This document shows, piece after piece, positions 2,671-18,596 of a DNA stretch of 20,000 nt; position 1 is the first letter of the stretch; the number at the start of each line of letters is the position of its first letter. A program made the translations under genes and the position numbers. The stretch is from an uncultured virus (IMG/VR IMGVR_UViG_3300029258_003428) (lineage: Duplodnaviria; Heunggongvirae; Uroviricota; Caudoviricetes), in IMG/VR virus record IMGVR_UViG_3300029258_003428. One strand, 5' to 3'. The notes below the pieces were generated by a model. That model was given only the letters and a program-made list of their open reading frames with translations, ran no database searches and was not told the origin of the DNA.

Positions 2671-2955
2671 ATGAGCTATCTGGTATGTGGTATCTACGAC
2701 AAACGTCCGGAGGTGTGCCGGCAATATCCGAACCGCTACAGCTACATGCCAGATAGCTGTGGTTACTTCTTCAGCGACAAGCGGGAGGGGTGTTGCTATC
2801 TGGAGTGTCAGGCGGCTTGTTGTATGGAGCCGCGGGAGGGCGGAGAGCCGGGAGGGGCACCTCTGCCCGACATCGCCGGGGGCGAGCCATGCAAGTATCT
2901 CATTTCCGTGGATGAGCCGCCAGAGGGCGCTATAATCGAGAGGCCAGAGGAGTGA
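2671..2955 (+). CDS. YkgJ/CxxCxxCC-family-like Cys-rich metal-binding protein (motif order permuted)
   Basis: CGIYDKRPEVCRQYP, CYLECQAACC and GEPCKYL motifs. Confidence 0.7.
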   Translation: MSYLVCGIYDKRPEVCRQYPNRYSYMPDSCGYFFSDKREGCCYLECQAACCMEPREGGEPGGAPLPDIAGGEPCKYLISVDEPPEGAIIERPEE

Positions 2956-3596
2956 TGGGACGCAAGCTCAGGAAGTTGTCCGAGGGTGAAGAAGTTGAGG
3001 TTCCTGCTTTCCTGCAGGACGCGCGGGTCGTGGTAGTAGACACTGAGACGACGGGGTTCGACAGTAAGAGGGACAGGATCATTGAGATTGGAGCAATTTG
3101 GATCAACCGCGGTAGGGTCGTCACCGAGTTCGGTCGCATCTTGAATCCTGGACGAAGGCTGCCGCTGGACATCATGAAGCTGACGGGGATCACACAGAGC
3201 GAGGTGGATGCGGCAGACCCTTTCTGGAAGATCTCCAGTTTCGTGGTAGATCTTCTCGAGGCTCCATCCGTCATTGTGGCGTACAACAGTCCATTCGACA
3301 TGGGTTTTTTGAAGAGCGAGATCGAAAGGGCTGGGCGGGAAGTTCCACGCTTCGGTCCCGTTATCGATCCACTCAAGTGGACGCGGCACGAAGATCGAGG
3401 TAAGAGTTGCAAGCTGGGCGTTGCTGCGGCGAGGCGCGGCATCGAGGTAGAAGGAGCTCACCGGGCGGTGGACGACTGTAGGATCACTTTGGCGTTGATG
3501 AACACGCTCAAGTTCCCGAGCACCTTGTCTCAGACCATCGAAAATCAGAAGCACTTGAAGACCAACAACTATCGCAGACGCGGTGGTATAAGGTAG
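2955..3596 (+). CDS. DEDDh 3'-5' exonuclease (DNA polymerase III epsilon-like)
   Basis: ExoI VVDTETTG, ExoII AYNSPFDMGFL, ExoIII AHRAVDD; TGATG coupling at start. Confidence 0.92.
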   Translation: MGRKLRKLSEGEEVEVPAFLQDARVVVVDTETTGFDSKRDRIIEIGAIWINRGRVVTEFGRILNPGRRLPLDIMKLTGITQSEVDAADPFWKISSFVVDLLEAPSVIVAYNSPFDMGFLKSEIERAGREVPRFGPVIDPLKWTRHEDRGKSCKLGVAAARRGIEVEGAHRAVDDCRITLALMNTLKFPSTLSQTIENQKHLKTNNYRRRGGIR

Positions 3597-3625: not shown

Positions 3626-4450
3626 ATGCCAGGAGTAACTGAAGAGAACATCAAGCACTGGTTAAGGATGGACATACCGAAGGAGCTGTTGGAGGCGTTG
3701 GACGCATCGAGGAAGCTGGGCGGGTCATACATAGAGGACCTGCTCAAGAAGGGGATCTATAGGTTGGAGGAGATGTACGGCGACCAGGCGGAGCTCAACC
3801 TGGACTCGGTGATCGCAGAGGCGATCCAGAGCTTCACGGAGAAGCAGAGGAAGACCTCCGAGAACAGGTCCTCCCTGGACGACGCGAAGCGGACGACGGA
3901 GACGGTGGACAAGCAGGAGGTCGAGGTCGTCGTGAAACACGAGGTGGACGGGGAATCCTTCGAGCGGCGGTACTTGCTTGATCAGGCTTCCATCAATCAA
4001 AACAGGCAGTACAGCAAGGAGTACGACGAAAATGGCAGATGTGCGGACATCGTGCCGGTCGGAAAGCCATACCTCGTGGTGACTGGTGTAGTGGTCGGGG
4101 GGAGTAACTCCCCGGCTAAAGATCTGCAAGTGTGCGCGGACAAGATCAAAGATCTGCAAGTGTACGCGGACAAGATCGCAGACCGGCTAAGTCTGGAGGT
4201 CACGTGGTGCGGAAGGACCATGGCAACGCTGGAGATAGACGAGAGGACACTGGTAGCGGGAGACAAGCCAGTCGACGAGCTCGTCGCCGGCTTTTGCGAT
4301 CGAGCGGCGCGGGAGATCAACATACCGAACGTGTCGGCGAAGGACATCCACAGGGAACTCTCGCTCGCTGTCGGATCGCGCTACGAAGAAATCGCTGCCC
4401 AGTCACCGGTAAACGAGTCCCCAGCGTCAGAAAGATCAAGCGAAAGCTAG
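3626..4450 (+). CDS. Hypothetical protein, possible N-terminal RHH-like region
   Basis: GGAGG SD; LRMDIPKELLEALDASRKLGGSYIEDLL resembles RHH; 274 aa. Confidence 0.7.
   Translation: MPGVTEENIKHWLRMDIPKELLEALDASRKLGGSYIEDLLKKGIYRLEEMYGDQAELNLDSVIAEAIQSFTEKQRKTSENRSSLDDAKRTTETVDKQEVEVVVKHEVDGESFERRYLLDQASINQNRQYSKEYDENGRCADIVPVGKPYLVVTGVVVGGSNSPAKDLQVCADKIKDLQVYADKIADRLSLEVTWCGRTMATLEIDERTLVAGDKPVDELVAGFCDRAAREINIPNVSAKDIHRELSLAVGSRYEEIAAQSPVNESPASERSSES
4118..4177 (+). repeat. In-frame 30-bp tandem duplication
   Basis: AAAGATCTGCAAGTGT(G/A)CGCGGACAAGATC x2, one mismatch; encodes KDLQVCADKI KDLQVYADKI. Confidence 0.95.
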
Positions 4451-4470: not shown

Positions 4471-5034
4471 ATGGGGTTCCCACGGGACTGGCTTCCGGAT
4501 GTCGCGCAAGTGATCGCAGAGGTTCTGCACGAGAACGCTCTGCGGCGCGGCATACCGGAGACCGTTCGACGATCGGAAATCGTTCTGGAGGGAAGGAATC
4601 CGTTGTTGATGTCCTCGACACACACGACCACCATGAAAGATGGGGCAAAGATCCCTACGTGGCGGGGCAAGAAGTTCGAGGGCAGGGAGTCGCTGAAACA
4701 AGCGATCTCGGACCTGATGGATGGCGTAGATGAAGATGACGGTAGAGGTGCTTTTGGGAATCCAGCTGGAAGATTCCGGTACGATGCTTTCGCCAAAGAA
4801 TTTGCGGCCATCGGGGCGGGTGTACGCAACGAAGATGGCGTTCAAGGCGTTGTGCAAGATTCTGCACGAGAAATACGGGATTGGACTGGACGTGGTGAGT
4901 CAGTCGGCCGAGGCCGCATCATCGATGTGCAGTATGATCGCCAACGGGGACATGGACTGGGAAGAGAACAACCTGATTCGAAAGAAGCGCGAGATGCTTC
5001 GCAGGAGGACAAGGAAAAATGCAAGCCTGGATAG
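4471..5034 (+). CDS. Hypothetical protein (start uncertain)
   Basis: Part of ORF 4132-5034; ATG 4471 follows GGGAGG; fills the gap between neighbours; 3' half overlaps the next ORF. Confidence 0.45.
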   Translation: MGFPRDWLPDVAQVIAEVLHENALRRGIPETVRRSEIVLEGRNPLLMSSTHTTTMKDGAKIPTWRGKKFEGRESLKQAISDLMDGVDEDDGRGAFGNPAGRFRYDAFAKEFAAIGAGVRNEDGVQGVVQDSAREIRDWTGRGESVGRGRIIDVQYDRQRGHGLGREQPDSKEARDASQEDKEKCKPG

Positions 5035-5053
5035 AGATGATCAAACAAAATAA
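4730..5053 (+). CDS. Hypothetical protein
   Basis: Protein-like 107-aa ORF overlapping both neighbours. Confidence 0.5.
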   Translation: MKMTVEVLLGIQLEDSGTMLSPKNLRPSGRVYATKMAFKALCKILHEKYGIGLDVVSQSAEAASSMCSMIANGDMDWEENNLIRKKREMLRRRTRKNASLDRDDQTK

Positions 5054-5684
5054 GGTCACATTCGTCATTGGTGGGCTGATCGTCATTCTGGCCATTGGCG
5101 GTGTCATCTACGGCATTGCCACGAAGGCCGGGGATGAAGGGTTTCACGCGGCGGCGGACGGGACAGTCCTGAAGTGGGACCGCTCGGCCCTGCCGCTGAC
5201 TTGCTTTCACGACACATTCCCCAATGAGGAGCACCAGGCTGCGCTGAAGGAGGCGATCGGGAAGATCTCCAAGGCTGGGATATCGGCGTTCATGCCGTGC
5301 CAGCCTTGGATGGTCTCCGATCCCTTCCCCACAAAGCACGTCAAAAACACGGTCTTGATCAAGGTTGGCGCTCCGCCGGAGCCAGAACGAGAAGTGGTGG
5401 TCACTTCTCCGTTCGAACCGAAGCACGGGGCGTCCACATTTTTAGCTCATGTCAAGGGAAAAGGGATCTACGGCGCGATCGTTTATATCATGCCAGACCT
5501 TGATAAGAAGCTGTACGGTAGGGTCTACCTGCACGAGCTTTTGCACGCCCTGGGCTTGACACACGACCGTGTTCGCGATTCGATTATGTATCCGACAGCA
5601 GCAGAGAGGGCCACCGACCTGTCCAGTAAGGACACTAAACTACTGCTGAAAACCTACGGAGAGCGGAACGATGAGCCTAGCTGA
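5019..5684 (+). CDS. Membrane-anchored matrixin/M10-like zinc metallopeptidase (metzincin)
   Basis: N-terminal hydrophobic helix VTFVIGGLIVILAIGGVIYGIA; HELLHALGLTH (HExxHxxGxxH); Met-turn SIMYP. Confidence 0.88.
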   Translation: MQAWIEMIKQNKVTFVIGGLIVILAIGGVIYGIATKAGDEGFHAAADGTVLKWDRSALPLTCFHDTFPNEEHQAALKEAIGKISKAGISAFMPCQPWMVSDPFPTKHVKNTVLIKVGAPPEPEREVVVTSPFEPKHGASTFLAHVKGKGIYGAIVYIMPDLDKKLYGRVYLHELLHALGLTHDRVRDSIMYPTAAERATDLSSKDTKLLLKTYGERNDEPS

Positions 5685-8258: not shown

Positions 8259-8447
8259 ATGCCGCGTATCATCAGGGGGACAGCCGAGAAGAAGTACAAC
8301 ATCGTCAAGACCCAACATCGTTCAAACATCAACAAGATGCGTTGCCAGGGCTGCAGGTTGGGTTACGCAGAGCGTGTTCAGACGGCCGGCGGGTGGGTCT
8401 ATCGTTGCAACCGGTGCGGCCGGGAGTACACTGTAGACAAGCTGTAG
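8259..8447 (+). CDS. Small zinc-ribbon protein
   Basis: GGAGG SD before ATG 8259; CQGC..CNRC. Confidence 0.7.
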   Translation: MPRIIRGTAEKKYNIVKTQHRSNINKMRCQGCRLGYAERVQTAGGWVYRCNRCGREYTVDKL

Positions 8448-8453
8448 AACTAA

Positions 8454-8490
8454 AGAGAGGTCGGTCGTCCTCTCTAAACCCGAGGGGTTT
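8454..8490. terminator. Two adjacent hairpins after the last + strand gene
   Basis: AGAGAGG/CCTCTCT (8454-8475) and AAACCC/GGGTTT (8476-8490) inverted repeats. Confidence 0.45.
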
Positions 8491-8559
8491 GGCTGATTGC
8501 GGTCTGGTCTTTACGTCACAGAGCACTCAAGTACCCACCTGATTAATCATTTTGTAGCT

Positions 8560-8586
8560 AAGAAAAGACAGCCCGGCCGGGCTGCC
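8560..8586 (-). terminator. Rho-independent terminator closing the array on the - strand
   Basis: Minus strand reads GGCAGCCC-GGCC-GGGCTGTC-TTTTCTT: GC stem followed by a U-rich tract. Confidence 0.7.
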
Positions 8587-9697
8587 TCAGGATGGCATGG
8601 ATTGAGAAGGAGTGTCAGAGCGATCGGGTCTGGATCAGATCGTCGAACTGGTGGGGACCGGACCGCGTTGGGTTGTCGCCACGATCAGGTCTGGCAGGAT
8701 ATGGACTGTCGAGTTGGTTAGATAAGGGCTGTCGCGCCGTGACGGACTGCGCCGTGCGGAGGGGGGACGTCGACTAGGCGCGAGCGGGAGTGGTCAGGCA
8801 TGGTTCGTCTGATCGCGGGGGACCGGGCAGGAGAAGGCTTGTCAGATCGAGAGGGATTGGCCTGTTCCAGCTCGTCGCGAAGGCTTGGCTTATCAGTTAG
8901 GCCCGGCCAGGTCTGTCAGCTGCGTGGTGCGTGAGGGCCGGATCGGGCATGTCGAATCGGATGACGACGAGGTGCGGGTGGGCCAGTCAGCTTGGGTGGG
9001 GTTGAGGAGCGACGGCATGGGATGTCGGCCGGGGCGGGCGTGAACTGGAGCGGGTTGTCGGCTTTGCCAGCACCGGCTCGCAACGGCTCGTAATGAATCG
9101 GACCGTCGAAGTGGATGGGCTAGGAGGGGAGAGGGGAGGCTTGTCAGCACGGGGTGAGGTGGATAGGTCAGGAATGTCGAGCAGTCTCGGCTGGTTTAGG
9201 GTTGGCTTGTCAGGCAGGAGCGGTCCGGTGTAGATCGGATTGTCCAGTCGGTTGGAACAGGCAAGGCATGTCGAGCAGGGAAGGCGCGGCTGATCTTGGC
9301 CCGTCGATTAGGATGGGTAGGGATTGGCTTGTCGGAATGGATCGAATGGGCTTGTCTATGCGGACGGGGACCGAGCGGACCAGGAGAGGTGAGTCGATCT
9401 GAAGTGGATGGGCGCGAACCGGAAGGGTCTGTCGAAAGGTTTGGGATGGGCGGGGACAAGACAGGTGCGTCAGAATGAGGGGGCTCGAGTGAGAGCGAGT
9501 GGGTGAGTCGACCCGGCTTGGTACGCGGTGGTCCGGCATGTCAGCTCGAGAGGAACCGGCTTGGTCTGTCGGACTGGTGTGGTGTGTATGGGACTGTCTC
9601 GTCGGGATCGGGTTGGTTTGATTTGGCGAGGTGTGTCAGGAGGGTCTAAGGTGGGTGGGACCGTGTTGGCTTGTACGGGATAGTCTCAGTGTCTTGT
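8560..9697 (-). ncRNA. Predicted guide-RNA precursor associated with the Cas7-like gene (strand inferred)
   Basis: Array starts at the stop codon of the RAMP gene and ends at a - strand terminator. Transcription is inferred, not shown. Confidence 0.55.
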
Positions 9698-9698
9698 C
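8586..9698. repeat. Non-coding array of ~34 degenerate units: GTC + (GG-NNN)n, 5-nt periodic
   Basis: Hand-parsed delimiter spacings: 28,28,33,33,23,38,38,34,33,18,23,36,35,38,33,48,38,33,33,33,28,33,28,23,39,38,38,38,33,28,28,39,48,13. 29 of 34 equal 3+5n. No credible ORF in the region. Confidence 0.92.
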
Positions 9699-10519
9699 TA
9701 GGCCGCCTTGCCCTTTTTGGGAACCTTCGTCTTGGGAGCCTTCGTCTTGGGCTTGGGCAGCGAGCCCTTCTGGAGCTCCTCGACGGTGAGGAACTTGACG
9801 CGGCCGAAGCCCTGGGACCTCGAGCAGCCGAAGCCGTTATCTTGCGCCAGCTGCATGCAGTAGGTCAAGAACTCCTCGCTCATCCGCTTATCCTTCGGAT
9901 CGGCAAACCATATCTCGAACTCGATGTAGGTACCGGGTTCCACGTAGTCGTGAAACTTGATCGTACTGCGCGGCCCCTGGGGGCCGATGACGTGCGCCAC
10001 CGTCTCTTCATGCCCGTCCGGCTCCACCAGCCGCTTCCTGTCCGCTTCCTTGTGTCCCTTGTCGTATAGGTAGACGCGGTCTGGGTGCTCGCAGCCCCGG
10101 ATGAAGAATGAGTGCTGTAAGATCTGACGAACGCCGCGGTGTACGTTGGTCAGCCCCAGCACCGTTGCGGTCTCCTTGAAGCCGGCCTTGAGTTGCCGCG
10201 TCTCCAGAAAGATGCCATGTCCTTCCGGTTCGATCTTGTCCGGCTCCGCCTTGAACCCCGTCCAGGACTTGAGCTTCGCCTTCTCGCTCTCCTCTATGTC
10301 GTCATCGGACGACATCTCCTGGACGCGGGCTCTGGCCGCCTCCACGGTCTCGTCCTTGACCAGGCCCTTGCGGTGTCGTGCCTCGAGCATGGCCAGCTCG
10401 GATTCCGGATGTTTTGGCCAGCCGCCGAGCAGCCGGTTGGCCGTGACCATTGTCACCTTGTACTTCGTGTAGATGTTGACGTCGTGTTCGCGAACTAGTT
10501 CCTCAAAAGTCCTCTCCAT
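9698..10519 (-). CDS. Stand-alone Cas7/RAMP-superfamily-like protein (Vipr-like)
   Basis: N-terminal strand YKVTMVTANRLLGG; IFLETRQLKAGFKETA equivalent to the RAMP IPGSSLKGxxR helix; DYVEPGTYIEFEI; C-terminal Gly-rich loop GFGCSRSQGFGRV; AAGGAG SD. Confidence 0.8.
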   Translation of the reverse strand: MERTFEELVREHDVNIYTKYKVTMVTANRLLGGWPKHPESELAMLEARHRKGLVKDETVEAARARVQEMSSDDDIEESEKAKLKSWTGFKAEPDKIEPEGHGIFLETRQLKAGFKETATVLGLTNVHRGVRQILQHSFFIRGCEHPDRVYLYDKGHKEADRKRLVEPDGHEETVAHVIGPQGPRSTIKFHDYVEPGTYIEFEIWFADPKDKRMSEEFLTYCMQLAQDNGFGCSRSQGFGRVKFLTVEELQKGSLPKPKTKAPKTKVPKKGKAA

Positions 10520-10559: not shown

Positions 10560-11240
10560 TTAGCGCTCCCAAAGAATTGTGAGTTCGTCGTCCTGTACGT
10601 GGATCCATCCGCCAGACGTCTTGTTCTGGTATACTTGCACTACTTGCTGGCACCAGGGCGGCGGCGGGCCGTTCCACATGGACAAGGCCCCTTCGAGCCT
10701 GACAAACTCTCCGGCGTCAGGCTCGAAACATCCCACAGGTAGCGTGACCCGCGGCTTGGGAGTCCTGGGCGTCCCCCAGGTCTTCGATTTCGTCTTCGAT
10801 TCCAGCAGCGCGATGTAGAAGTTCCTCAATGGGATACAAGCCCCTTTCTCGATCAATGTGACCTGTTTCTCTTTCCACTCGTCCTGCCACAGCTCCTCAT
10901 CGATCTCGTGCAGCGTCCCATCCCGTCCGGCTTCTACGATCTTCCCCTCGTGTAGGAAAGCGTAGAGGTTTCCTCCTTTGCACCAACCGAGGGCGGGGAT
11001 CAAATCGCGCGGAACCATCTGTCCGATGTCGTCCCACTCCACCAGGTGCATGTAGAACGTTCTGTCCTCTGCACCACTCGCCCAGACCTTGCGCCCATTG
11101 ACGCTGATCTTCACATGACAGAAGTGTCCCAGCTGCTTGACGCGTCCTGAGCGCTTGATGATGCCGATCATGGGCAAATCCGGTTTGGGGCCTTCAACCC
11201 CAAACCAGATCTGCTTGACGTACCAACTGTACTCACTCAC
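10560..11240 (-). CDS. Hypothetical protein
   Basis: 226-aa ORF, GTGA coupling to the upstream gene; directly upstream of the Cas7-like gene. Confidence 0.7.
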   Translation of the reverse strand: MSEYSWYVKQIWFGVEGPKPDLPMIGIIKRSGRVKQLGHFCHVKISVNGRKVWASGAEDRTFYMHLVEWDDIGQMVPRDLIPALGWCKGGNLYAFLHEGKIVEAGRDGTLHEIDEELWQDEWKEKQVTLIEKGACIPLRNFYIALLESKTKSKTWGTPRTPKPRVTLPVGCFEPDAGEFVRLEGALSMWNGPPPPWCQQVVQVYQNKTSGGWIHVQDDELTILWER

Positions 11241-16552: not shown

Positions 16553-18040
16553 TTACAACTCCTCGTTGATGCACTCGTTGAGATCTTTGTTCCTCCTGAA
16601 GCTGAGAACCTTGGGGAAGGTGAGTGCGTTGCTATCCTGCCCCTTGGATATGTAGCTTCGGTCCTGGTATCCCACTTGCAGGACACCGATCCACATCCCT
16701 TCATCAGCGATGCGCTTGCGTTGGGCGTCCGTCAGGCCGCCGCTCACCTCGCCGATGTAATGCTTCACCCCATCCTTGTCGTACTGGTACAAACTGATCG
16801 ATCCGACCCGCTTCATGTTCTTGCCGGTGCCGTAGGCTCCGTTCGTCTTCAACCGCTTGCCGCATACGGCACACTTACCGCTGCTCGTCTGCTTCTGCAG
16901 CGCGCCATGGTCAGGGACATGACATTTCGTGGTGCAGTGCTCGCGCATGCCGTCAGGTTCCCAGATCCCGATGAAGTCGTCCTCCAGGGCGTTCTTGACC
17001 TTCCAGCAGACGTTCGGCCGATCTGGCTGACCAAGGAAGCTGAGATGCTTCTCGCCCAGCGATCCCCAACAGTCGTACACCACCCATCCCTCGTACCCGT
17101 ACTTCCTCATCTCTGAGATCATGTCGTCGTAAGGCTCGGCAGCAATGTCTGGGCCGTGTACGAACTTGCAGAGATGGAGTCCGGTGTGACCTCCCCACCC
17201 ATCGACGAGCTCCATCAACCAGTCGAGCCAGAAGCTACAGCTGTGGTCCTTCTCGAGGTTGTCCCCTTCCCAGAAGGGCATACGGAACACGTAGGCGTGG
17301 ACCAGGCCGAGCTTGCGCTGCATCTCAATCGCCCGCTCCGGCAGAGAGTTGGCGATTTGCTGCATCGCCTTGAATTCTTCTTTCGTCTTTCCTTCGCCGA
17401 TGTAGAACTCACAGAGCAAGATCGTCTCGGCGGGGAGCAGGGCCTCGAACTCCTCGACCAGGTGCGGGAACTTGTCGTTCTCGACCTTCATCTTCCCGCG
17501 GGATTGGATCCACACAGATCCGTCTCGGTCTTTGGAGACCACGAAGCACATCCCGTTCTTCTTCACGGTCCAGGCCAGCGGGGGACCTCCTACACTCCTC
17601 CCAGACTTCCGTGATTCGAGCTTCCGCAGCTTCTCCTCCTTGATCGAGTTGACGGGCTTCGAGAAGGCCACGTTGTTGGGCAGCGGGCCATCGAAAGAGA
17701 TCTGCTGGGAGCGGGTAACGCCGCCGAGCTCCTCTTCCAACATCGTCGCGAACTTGCCCTTGCTCGGCTTCACAATGATCTCGTACCCCGCCTGCGCTTT
17801 CTTCTTGACGTCGCGGACAAGCTGCTCAAGCGCGGAACGTTCTGGAGAGATCCAGGCTTTCGTGCCCTTCTTTCCCTTCTCACCAGGAATGTCCACCGTC
17901 TCCTGGATCTTCCCGTCCAACACGCCCCACTGGGTGATGACCTCGTCCCCGTCTACCCATCCAGCCCAGACCTGCGTGTTCTTCTTGGCCTCCCGCTGCA
18001 TGCTGCAGTAGGTCTTCTTACTCCTGGGTGTCTTTCTCAT
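16553..18040 (-). CDS. ATP-dependent DNA ligase with N-terminal WGR-like domain and Cys4 insert
   Basis: WGR-like QVWAGWVDGDEVITQWGVLDGKIQ..KKKAQAGY; motif I VKKNG, III LLCE, IV YEGWVV, V WKVK; OB-fold GEVSGGLTDAQR..LTFPKVLSFRRNK. Confidence 0.88.
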   Translation of the reverse strand: MRKTPRSKKTYCSMQREAKKNTQVWAGWVDGDEVITQWGVLDGKIQETVDIPGEKGKKGTKAWISPERSALEQLVRDVKKKAQAGYEIIVKPSKGKFATMLEEELGGVTRSQQISFDGPLPNNVAFSKPVNSIKEEKLRKLESRKSGRSVGGPPLAWTVKKNGMCFVVSKDRDGSVWIQSRGKMKVENDKFPHLVEEFEALLPAETILLCEFYIGEGKTKEEFKAMQQIANSLPERAIEMQRKLGLVHAYVFRMPFWEGDNLEKDHSCSFWLDWLMELVDGWGGHTGLHLCKFVHGPDIAAEPYDDMISEMRKYGYEGWVVYDCWGSLGEKHLSFLGQPDRPNVCWKVKNALEDDFIGIWEPDGMREHCTTKCHVPDHGALQKQTSSGKCAVCGKRLKTNGAYGTGKNMKRVGSISLYQYDKDGVKHYIGEVSGGLTDAQRKRIADEGMWIGVLQVGYQDRSYISKGQDSNALTFPKVLSFRRNKDLNECINEEL

Positions 18041-18596
18041 CGTCCTCTTCCTTTTCCATCGGGAGGTACACGTTGCGTCGCTTATCGCTGTTGTCCTTCT
18101 CGGATCGTATGAGCCCGAGCTTTCGTAGTACCCCAATATGTCTGGAGACTGTCTGTGCTGTGGTGAAAACTCCGACCTCGTCCAGCCCTCGATGAATATC
18201 GCGCAACGCTTTTCTACCCTCGCGAATCAGCTCTAGCACCAACAAGACATCTTCTTTTATACGATGGCCGGCCACAACGAACGGCTGTCTTTGAGCTGTG
18301 AATGGGGCGGACTCCATGATGGCATCGGTTAGAACCAAGAACTGTTCTATGTCGTGTAGGCTTTTCGTCTTGATCCAGACGTGGGCCTGGTCTGTCTTGC
18401 CTGGGGTCACGCACAGGTTGAAGCTCTCAGATTGCCGTTTCATAAACTCCTTCACCTGGGCGAATTTGGAGAACCATTCGAACGAAACTCCCTTCGGCGC
18501 GTTTTCCTTATCCCTCCTCCAAAGCGCGTTGATGTGGTTCCAGTAATTCAGAACCTCGGAGTCGCTAAGGGGCTTGTCAGATCTTCGCTGAGTCAT
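18018..18596 (-). CDS. Winged helix-turn-helix (MarR/ArsR-like) protein
   Basis: C-terminal TAQTVSRHIGVLRKLGLIRSEKDNSDKRRNVY (recognition helix, LxxxGLI, DxR wing). Confidence 0.8.
   Translation of the reverse strand: MTQRRSDKPLSDSEVLNYWNHINALWRRDKENAPKGVSFEWFSKFAQVKEFMKRQSESFNLCVTPGKTDQAHVWIKTKSLHDIEQFLVLTDAIMESAPFTAQRQPFVVAGHRIKEDVLLVLELIREGRKALRDIHRGLDEVGVFTTAQTVSRHIGVLRKLGLIRSEKDNSDKRRNVYLPMEKEEDDEKDTQE

Follow-up and report, generated by a model that had tools for sequence, protein, structure and literature searches.

The locus considered here raises the question of how a dense phage array of short guides with a five-nucleotide period would be divided into single guides, and from which strand. 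The release of VIPR-type guides from arrays is an open question, and the text of the VIPR preprint states that its staggered vrRNA arrays were not confirmed by sequencing (10.64898/2026.04.26.720920). The stretch analyzed (20,000 nt, hereafter the window) had been read from its letters alone in an earlier note, the original prediction, in which an 8-nt motif, GGNNHGTC, was taken as a polarized unit boundary and a possible processing site or handle. The best combined explanation, held at a probability of roughly two thirds, is a VIPR-like array on the minus strand, in which guides would be separated at YC/GAC-D and a RAMP filament would silence genes of rival phages. A likely signal (YC/GAC), a likely strand, and a unit grammar are named, and all can be tested with one plasmid.

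Genome context and locus layout

The genome carrying the array belongs to a phage, is 178 kb long, and is recorded as complete, with terminal repeats; its genes include those for a major head protein, a DNA polymerase, and a multi-subunit RNA polymerase of the phage itself. A protein of 2580 aa at L374:1765-9504 has several matches of the RNA polymerase beta type, pointing to a phage-own polymerase. A lone RAMP gene of 273 aa (9698..10519, minus strand) was assigned a Csm3/Cas7-like fold with a thumb and a G-loop (GFGCSRSQGFG) using AlphaFold and structure and profile matches, and its product is presumed to be a guide-binding filament protein. The period-5 array, about 1.1 kb long, begins 4-12 nt past the stop codon of this gene. 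It occupies 8589..9693 of the minus strand and comprises about 33 units of the form GAC-(NN-NYC)n, where n is mostly 4-7 and spans 3-9 in regular units. Two GAC triplets lying 8 nt apart immediately 3' of the RAMP stop codon (9683..9693, minus strand) form the first junctions and would release guide 1 from the mRNA. At the array end, a hairpin of 10 pairs with a U-rich run behind it (8558..8588, minus strand; RNAfold -19.4 kcal/mol, z -2.1) is terminator-like, and it was absent from the output of the consensus terminator scan. A second terminator-like hairpin on the minus strand (8454-8475) and a perfect 10-nt palindrome, TGATTAATCA (8540-8549), were also observed past the array end. A sigma-70 promoter scan returned no candidates, which is a weak test for a phage carrying its own multi-subunit RNA polymerase.

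Profile searches of the phage genome covered RAMPs, Cas6, and Vipr and found, besides the G-loop match of the RAMP gene itself, no second RAMP, no canonical Vipr, and, as had been stated in the original prediction, no Cas6. No dedicated nuclease was found in the locus or the genome, and no CRISPR-type repeat family in the window locus. The co-oriented upstream gene (10560..11240, minus strand; 226 aa) had no Pfam or PHROG match and no homolog near any of the 134 family genes described below, and it is probably outside the system because it is not a conserved neighbor. Other window genes encode a DEDDh exonuclease (2952-3596), which could trim guides and which nothing ties to the array, an M10-type peptidase (5019-5684), a small zinc-ribbon protein (8259-8447), an ATP-dependent ligase (16553-18136), and a winged-helix protein (18018-18596). 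A 30-nt tandem duplication (4118-4177, 97% identical) lies inside a 274-aa ORF.

The junction motif in the window

Between 8609 and 9698, GGNNHGTC occurs 30 times on the plus strand and 0 times on the minus strand, where 1000 dinucleotide shuffles gave a mean of 3.25 and a maximum of 10. The array is the sole dense cluster of the motif in 178 kb, all other 500-nt bins holding fewer than 4 copies. Delimiters were parsed using a dynamic programme, with two (8915 and 8951) placed by hand, and the parse comprises 33 delimiters (32 GTC and 1 ATC). The GTC starts are located at 8614, 8642, 8675, 8708, 8731, 8769, 8807, 8841, 8874, 8892 (ATC), 8915, 8951, 8986, 9024, 9057, and 9105 in the first half of the array, and at 9143, 9176, 9209, 9247 (or 9242), 9270, 9303, 9331, 9354, 9393, 9431, 9469, 9507, 9540, 9568, 9601 (or 9596), 9635, and 9683 in the second. 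Their spacing is 5n+3 in 27 of the 32 intervals (18-48 nt), and the remaining five measure 34, 34, 35, 36, and 39 nt. The irregular neighboring units at 8915-8986 measure 36 and 35 nt, the same sum as 33 and 38 nt, a pattern of offsetting indels. Read on the minus strand, the junction is YY/GAC-D (8609..9690; HGTC-RV on the plus strand), with the boundary before GAC.

The pentamer preceding the delimiter starts with GG in 29 of 33 cases, the following base being C in 11, T in 8, A in 5, and G in 5, and its last base is T in 20, C in 8, A in 5, and G in none. By comparison, G occupies that base in 28 of 108 internal pentamers (Fisher p 0.0003). The pentamer after the delimiter starts with GA (11), AG (10), GG (6), GC (3), or another pair (2; n=32). 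On the minus strand, CC is strictest in the pentamer next to GAC (29/33 versus 66/108 internal), and pentamer position 3 carries almost no information in the window array. The counts reported previously (GG in 31/34; last base T 23, C 7, A 4; base after GG C 11, T 8, A 7, G 5) are exactly recovered by an equally good alternative parse, in which 9242 and 9596 replace 9247 and 9601 and a terminal GTC at 9691 or 9696 is added. The motif is real, conserved, and functional-looking; its earlier description as the boundary of directional units holds, and the claim that G never precedes the delimiter is not a matter of chance.

Unit grammar across relatives

As far as the pattern of letters indicates, the unit is GAC-(NN-NYC)n on the minus strand, and its length is 5n+3 because a special GAC triplet meets an ordinary NYC triplet at each junction. 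A detector that required GAC returned 1570 units at 90 loci, in which the bases ending in GAC included CCGAC (804), GCGAC (202), TCGAC (169), ACGAC (132), and CTGAC (108); independent parses gave the same core. The core conserved in the family is YC/GAC-D, with the boundary before GAC, and the junction persists in relatives with as little as about 25% protein identity. Across the family, too, C is avoided directly after GAC (67/684 versus 904/3517). Because the spacing modulo 5 in relatives is 3 in 706 cases, 4 in 368, and another value in 496 (2 in 210, 0 in 179, and 1 in 107), the last pentamer overlaps YCGAC by 0-3 bases.

Junctions fully conserved over at least 8 bases were observed at L006:5790-6200 and L047:400-1300 (WTTGCAAC; AAGGACGAC), and in L006, L057, and L047 conservation extends to every one of the 8 junction bases. 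By their sequence, the L006 and L047 junctions appear to resemble a CRISPR tag more than the window junction does, and those of L006 and L003 may resemble class 1 repeat ends, a likeness for which the papers searched gave no confirmation.

Units are repeated within the arrays of L032, L004, and L039, which would suit a motif that acts at the DNA level as an insertion or recombination site. In a related proposal, the RNA would be a decoy pairing with G-rich canonical VIPR guides, since the C-rich RNA is pattern-complementary to GGYNN RNAs and one locus has both systems. Either explanation is extremely improbable, however: no integrase or Cas1-like conserved neighbor was found around the family genes, a gapped code aligns the units with phage genes (see below), and the array is tied to its own RAMP.

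The RAMP protein and its family

The model of the 273-aa RAMP (AlphaFold pLDDT 84) matched Csm3 (6ae2; Z 13.8, rmsd 3.9, 164 aligned) best among solved structures, and PADLOC assigned Csm3 to the protein (E 1e-5). The family profile matched the SUSP1-type Vipr profile with a probability of 95.8 (E 8e-9), the narrow 20-sequence profile reaching only 19.4; judged by these profiles, the family is a distant homolog of SUSP1-type Vipr. It matched 1506 clusters at 50% identity (E 0.001), its members are mostly viral, and one relative was found in a cultured phage, Mae-JY09. In a comparison of the family with the seed proteins of the VIPR preprint, 10 look-ups yielded none of that preprint's accessions.

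As described in the SUSP1 preprint, D and W of the Vipr G-loop read G1 and G2, and R lies in a pyrimidine pocket (10.64898/2026.04.26.720927). The family G-loop is without D and W and retains the pyrimidine-pocket R (AS/AD/AN/CS-R versus DW/DY-R in Vipr). H136, H176, and R234 are conserved in the RAMP, and close relatives show no variation at two histidines and at the arginine of the G-loop, which would allow self-processing. No conserved nuclease neighbor was found around the 134 family genes. A single common neighbor, a 187-aa gene family, was noted beside 57 of the 134 RAMP genes (e.g., L130:8095-8655), which is not in the window and has no PHROG or Atlas assignment. A close homolog (45% identity) at L001/L033 had no adjacent array detected.

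Assignment of the RNA strand

Within 400 nt of the 134 distinct family genes, the array on the coding strand was C-rich for 80 and G-rich for 3, and none was present for 51; the same tally for 58 SUSP1-type Vipr genes gave 0, 45, and 13, respectively. The GGY strand of SUSP1 is the vipr strand, whereas the G-rich strand of the window is antisense to the RAMP gene. Arrays of the family either begin at a stop codon or extend as far as a ribosome site. The association of 80 versus 3 agrees with the minus-strand reading of the original prediction, in which GAC comes first, and the RNA is very likely the C-rich minus strand.

The three G-rich exceptions are L003 (canonical vipr RNAs), L057 (NNNTG clade), and L135 (an inverted divergent array). 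At L003:3300-5900, a canonical vap-vipr with G-rich RNAs and a family RAMP with a C-rich GCGAC array occupy one operon on the same strand. In the L057 clade (L057:4530-5100; L050, L055, and L089 after the stop), the coding strand carries NNNTG pentamers and a YCGAG junction, the final bases of pentamer and junction having shifted together; the conserved junction is WAGYCGAG, the G-loop is QERSQG, and the first junction of L050 and L055 starts with the stop codon. The arrays of L029, L064, and L072 are inverted, with the C-rich strand running into the next gene.

In the opposite assignment, the RNA would be an antisense transcript of the G-rich strand with the canonical VIPR pattern (GGN-NN), and GUC would end the guides; the arrays would then be the staggered ones of the VIPR preprint in the form drawn there. 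Such a strand fits the NNNGG and NNNNG repeats of that preprint (10.64898/2026.04.26.720920), spacing of 5n+4 in several relatives would be a 1-nt overlap, and double-stranded DNA targets cannot discriminate the strand. Terminators surveyed in 36 arrays also fell on the G-rich side in 10 cases versus 3 on the C-rich side; three of these calls, when inspected, were antisense of lysine-rich gene ends. The assignment is nevertheless very unlikely, for it needs antisense promoters inside coding genes at dozens of loci, runs against the orientation of 80 versus 3 and the presence of both kinds on one strand in L003, and meets a G-loop from which the G-reading residues are missing. G-rich RNA may be made in addition to the C-rich RNA, because no plus-strand terminator was found between the convergent operon end at 8447 and the array. 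A role of GUC as the cut triplet of a hammerhead was rejected, as the G strand is an unlikely RNA and no ribozyme was found: Rfam searches gave no match in the window or in 10 relatives, and the space between guides is only 3 nt.

Targeting code

A total of 1150 units with at least five in-register pentamers were compared with 2.9 Mb using 12 codes and with 5.27 Mb using 8 codes, the sequence searched for targets totaling 6.4 Mb. With two bases paired and one skipped (NN+1), an L013 unit matched the C5 methylase motif NAADYGVPQT of L111 at 20/20 in sense, and an L119 unit matched the terminase Walker A motif of L112 at 18/18 in antisense; the skip falls on codon position 3 in both perfect matches. 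A weaker match (15/16) was located on a GLGKTIQA motif. Matches of at least 34 bits numbered 2 against a shuffle mean of 0.06 (0/200 shuffles reached 2), and wobble-phase matches of at least 24 bits numbered 41 against a mean of 27 (equaled by 0/200 shuffles); at 28 bits the excess was weak (11 versus 6.1, reached by 12/200 shuffles). The matches behind this code are few, and the matched sites are probably homologs of the true targets. An L151 unit matched, at 14/14, the region coding for the G-loop of the same RAMP family (L110:3944 and L120:10625), a possible case of system-against-system targeting. The codes NN+0, NN+2, and three bases+1 were rejected, with no excess; the only scores of the two period-5 codes came from sequences that look like array copies left unmasked. 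A codon-prefix composition test was not significant.

In the relatives' best hits, the match to the target takes in the two variable bases that follow GAC directly as well as those of the last pentamer ahead of the next GAC. Since the bases flanking GAC match in this way, the 8-mer would not be a non-pairing handle, with YC/GAC-D alone resembling one, and the suggested analogy to an 8-nt class 1 handle was not upheld. Matches end at the junction: 11 of the 12 best hits are followed by a further unit, which adds at most 3/6, so each unit is its own guide.

Whether the third variable base pairs was weighed separately. If all three did, with or without an 8-nt handle, the target would be contiguous; position 3 is near information-free, a three-base code without a skip gave 9 matches versus 3.4 at 30 bits (0/100 shuffles), homologous targets would lose wobble matches anyway, and the fully conserved 8-base junctions of L006, L057, and L047 would suit a handle. 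The third base agrees, however, in only 4/10 and 4/9 cases in the two perfect matches and in 86/296 cases in wobble-phase matches, a skip on the first base gave no excess in 5.27 Mb, and the NN inside the 8-mer match targets. Position 3 moreover depends on the scaffold (p 5e-6), and no dinucleotide bias was found across pentamer borders (p 0.73). Contiguous pairing is highly improbable as an account of the locus; a three-base code by itself is doubtful, and one with the full handle more so. The third-base mismatches, the lack of a first-base-skip excess, and the scaffold dependence favor the code with two paired bases and one skipped, which is likely. Of the earlier suggestion that up to three positions per step may be variable, the free variation of the third holds, and that base is more likely skipped than paired.

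Guides of the window itself, compared by 16 codes with the 178 kb genome that carries them, gave self-targets at null level; their best match in 5.27 Mb, 12/12, is at chance level, and 1.14 Mb from phages related by major capsid protein gave 0/22 at 22 bits. With 8-14 pairing bases, guides are short for specific targeting.

Cutting at the junction and proposed mechanism

The junction is very likely a guide boundary. It is probably also a cut site, because guides are bracketed at both array ends, following the n+1 logic of processing sites. In downstream arrays, the first GAC lies at most 7 nt from the stop codon in 13 of 31. In 35 of the 50 arrays located upstream (some of them close relatives), a last YGAC falls no more than 21 nt ahead of the ribosome site of the RAMP gene, too near it for another guide; the corresponding share among other genes is 170 of 667 (25%). 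The strict CC beside GAC suggests that GAC may set the register as well. A role in cleavage or nucleation, as originally proposed, is the best reading of the motif, and the bracketing fits a cut site.

Without specific cutting, GAC would nucleate the filament and reset the register, and host nucleases would trim the gaps or the transcript would work uncut. This is consistent with CC being strictest directly after GAC, with the looseness of spacing on the 5' side of GAC, and with the result that neither locus nor genome yielded a dedicated nuclease. A guide-less terminal GAC before ribosome sites is easier to understand as a cut, however, and the NNNTG clade retains YC before GAG although YC is not its scaffold, which makes a junction without specific cutting unlikely.

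In the preferred reading, with cutting, the RAMP gene and the array would form a single minus-strand transcript, in which a protein-bound N-Y-C triplet, the counterpart of the VIPR GGY, alternates with two target-pairing bases. Each guide would open with GAC and close with NYC, the two triplets abutting at the junction, and YC/GAC-D would be recognized as the guide boundary and cut, so that some 33 individual guides, each 18-48 nt long, result. The cutter would be, at about even odds, the RAMP itself or a host or phage RNase. The RAMP would then polymerize on each guide, one subunit per 5 bases in a register set by GAC, and the filament would bind double-stranded DNA of rival phages, with two bases paired and one skipped at codon third positions, leading to gene silencing. 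Of this scheme, the analysis shows the motif, its geometry and conservation, the strand association, the fold, the relatives' code, and the independence of units, whereas transcription, cutting, filament formation, silencing, and the targets of the window guides are inferred.

If the RAMP cuts at the junction, one protein of 273 aa would both release and employ at least 30 guides from one transcript, which would offer a compact means of multiplex silencing and would model how CRISPR-like repeat processing could have arisen. More tentatively, one Csm3-like protein might both cut a multi-guide array at a 3-8 nt motif and form the filament, in a C-based mirror of the VIPR code, with the junction of some clades frozen into a crRNA-tag-like 8-mer; a large phage family would then stand between VIPR and class 1 CRISPR.

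Comparison with known systems

With type II VIPR of SUSP1, as described in the two preprints (10.64898/2026.04.26.720920, 10.64898/2026.04.26.720927), the locus shares a phage-borne lone RAMP, homologous by profile, and a period-5 RNA. In both, two bases are read and the wobble is skipped, on either DNA strand and in rival-phage genes (in the family, by relatives' guides). The RRM-core RAMP with thumb and G-loop, the minimal viral locus, and the adjacent pentanucleotide repeat RNA gene are likewise VIPR features. VIPR differs in its GGY scaffold with D/W readers, whereas the window family has NYC on the coding strand, presumably transcribed. Type II loci carry few guides of 9-16 repeats, a structured conserved 3' tail, and vap; the window carries at least 30 short guides of 3-9 NN, head to tail, with a 3-5 nt junction and no accessory gene. 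VIPR ribozyme arrays have a hammerhead between guides, and the window array is without one.

In the staggered vrRNA arrays, as in the window, a guide ends where its successor begins, and the 5n+4 spacing of L011, L013, and L091 corresponds to a 1-nt overlap. The legend of Fig. S18 names no junction motif, strand, or 5n+3 spacing (10.64898/2026.04.26.720920); compared by that legend alone, the window array is possibly the same kind of array seen from the other strand. Non-canonical VIPR-like clusters, with Vipr-like folds beside GAC/NN, CAC/NN, WGT/NN, and TGH/NN cores, have been described (10.64898/2026.10.21.760802), and the TGH/NN cluster may be the L057 clade. Those clusters model cores every 5 nt, and the available passages of that source describe neither a junction between units nor processing or targets. 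The literature searched contained no report of C-rich guides or of a junction with GAC.

Class 1 CRISPR systems have a Cas6-made, repeat-derived 8-nt 5' tag (PMC5965381, PMC5256923). Common to them and the window are Csm3 as the best match, a motif-delimited multi-guide array, and a register set from a 5' motif. Class 1 CRISPR has a 25-40 nt repeat, Cas6, and a period of 6, whereas the window has a period of 5, a gapped code, and neither repeat nor Cas6; the CRISPR handle does not pair, whereas the window bases flanking GAC appear to be guide. The locus was filed as a variant because it works like VIPR but lacks the GGY, tail, and guide-length features, and it is best described as a putative, widespread, C-rich VIPR-like variant that would be neither type II VIPR nor CRISPR.
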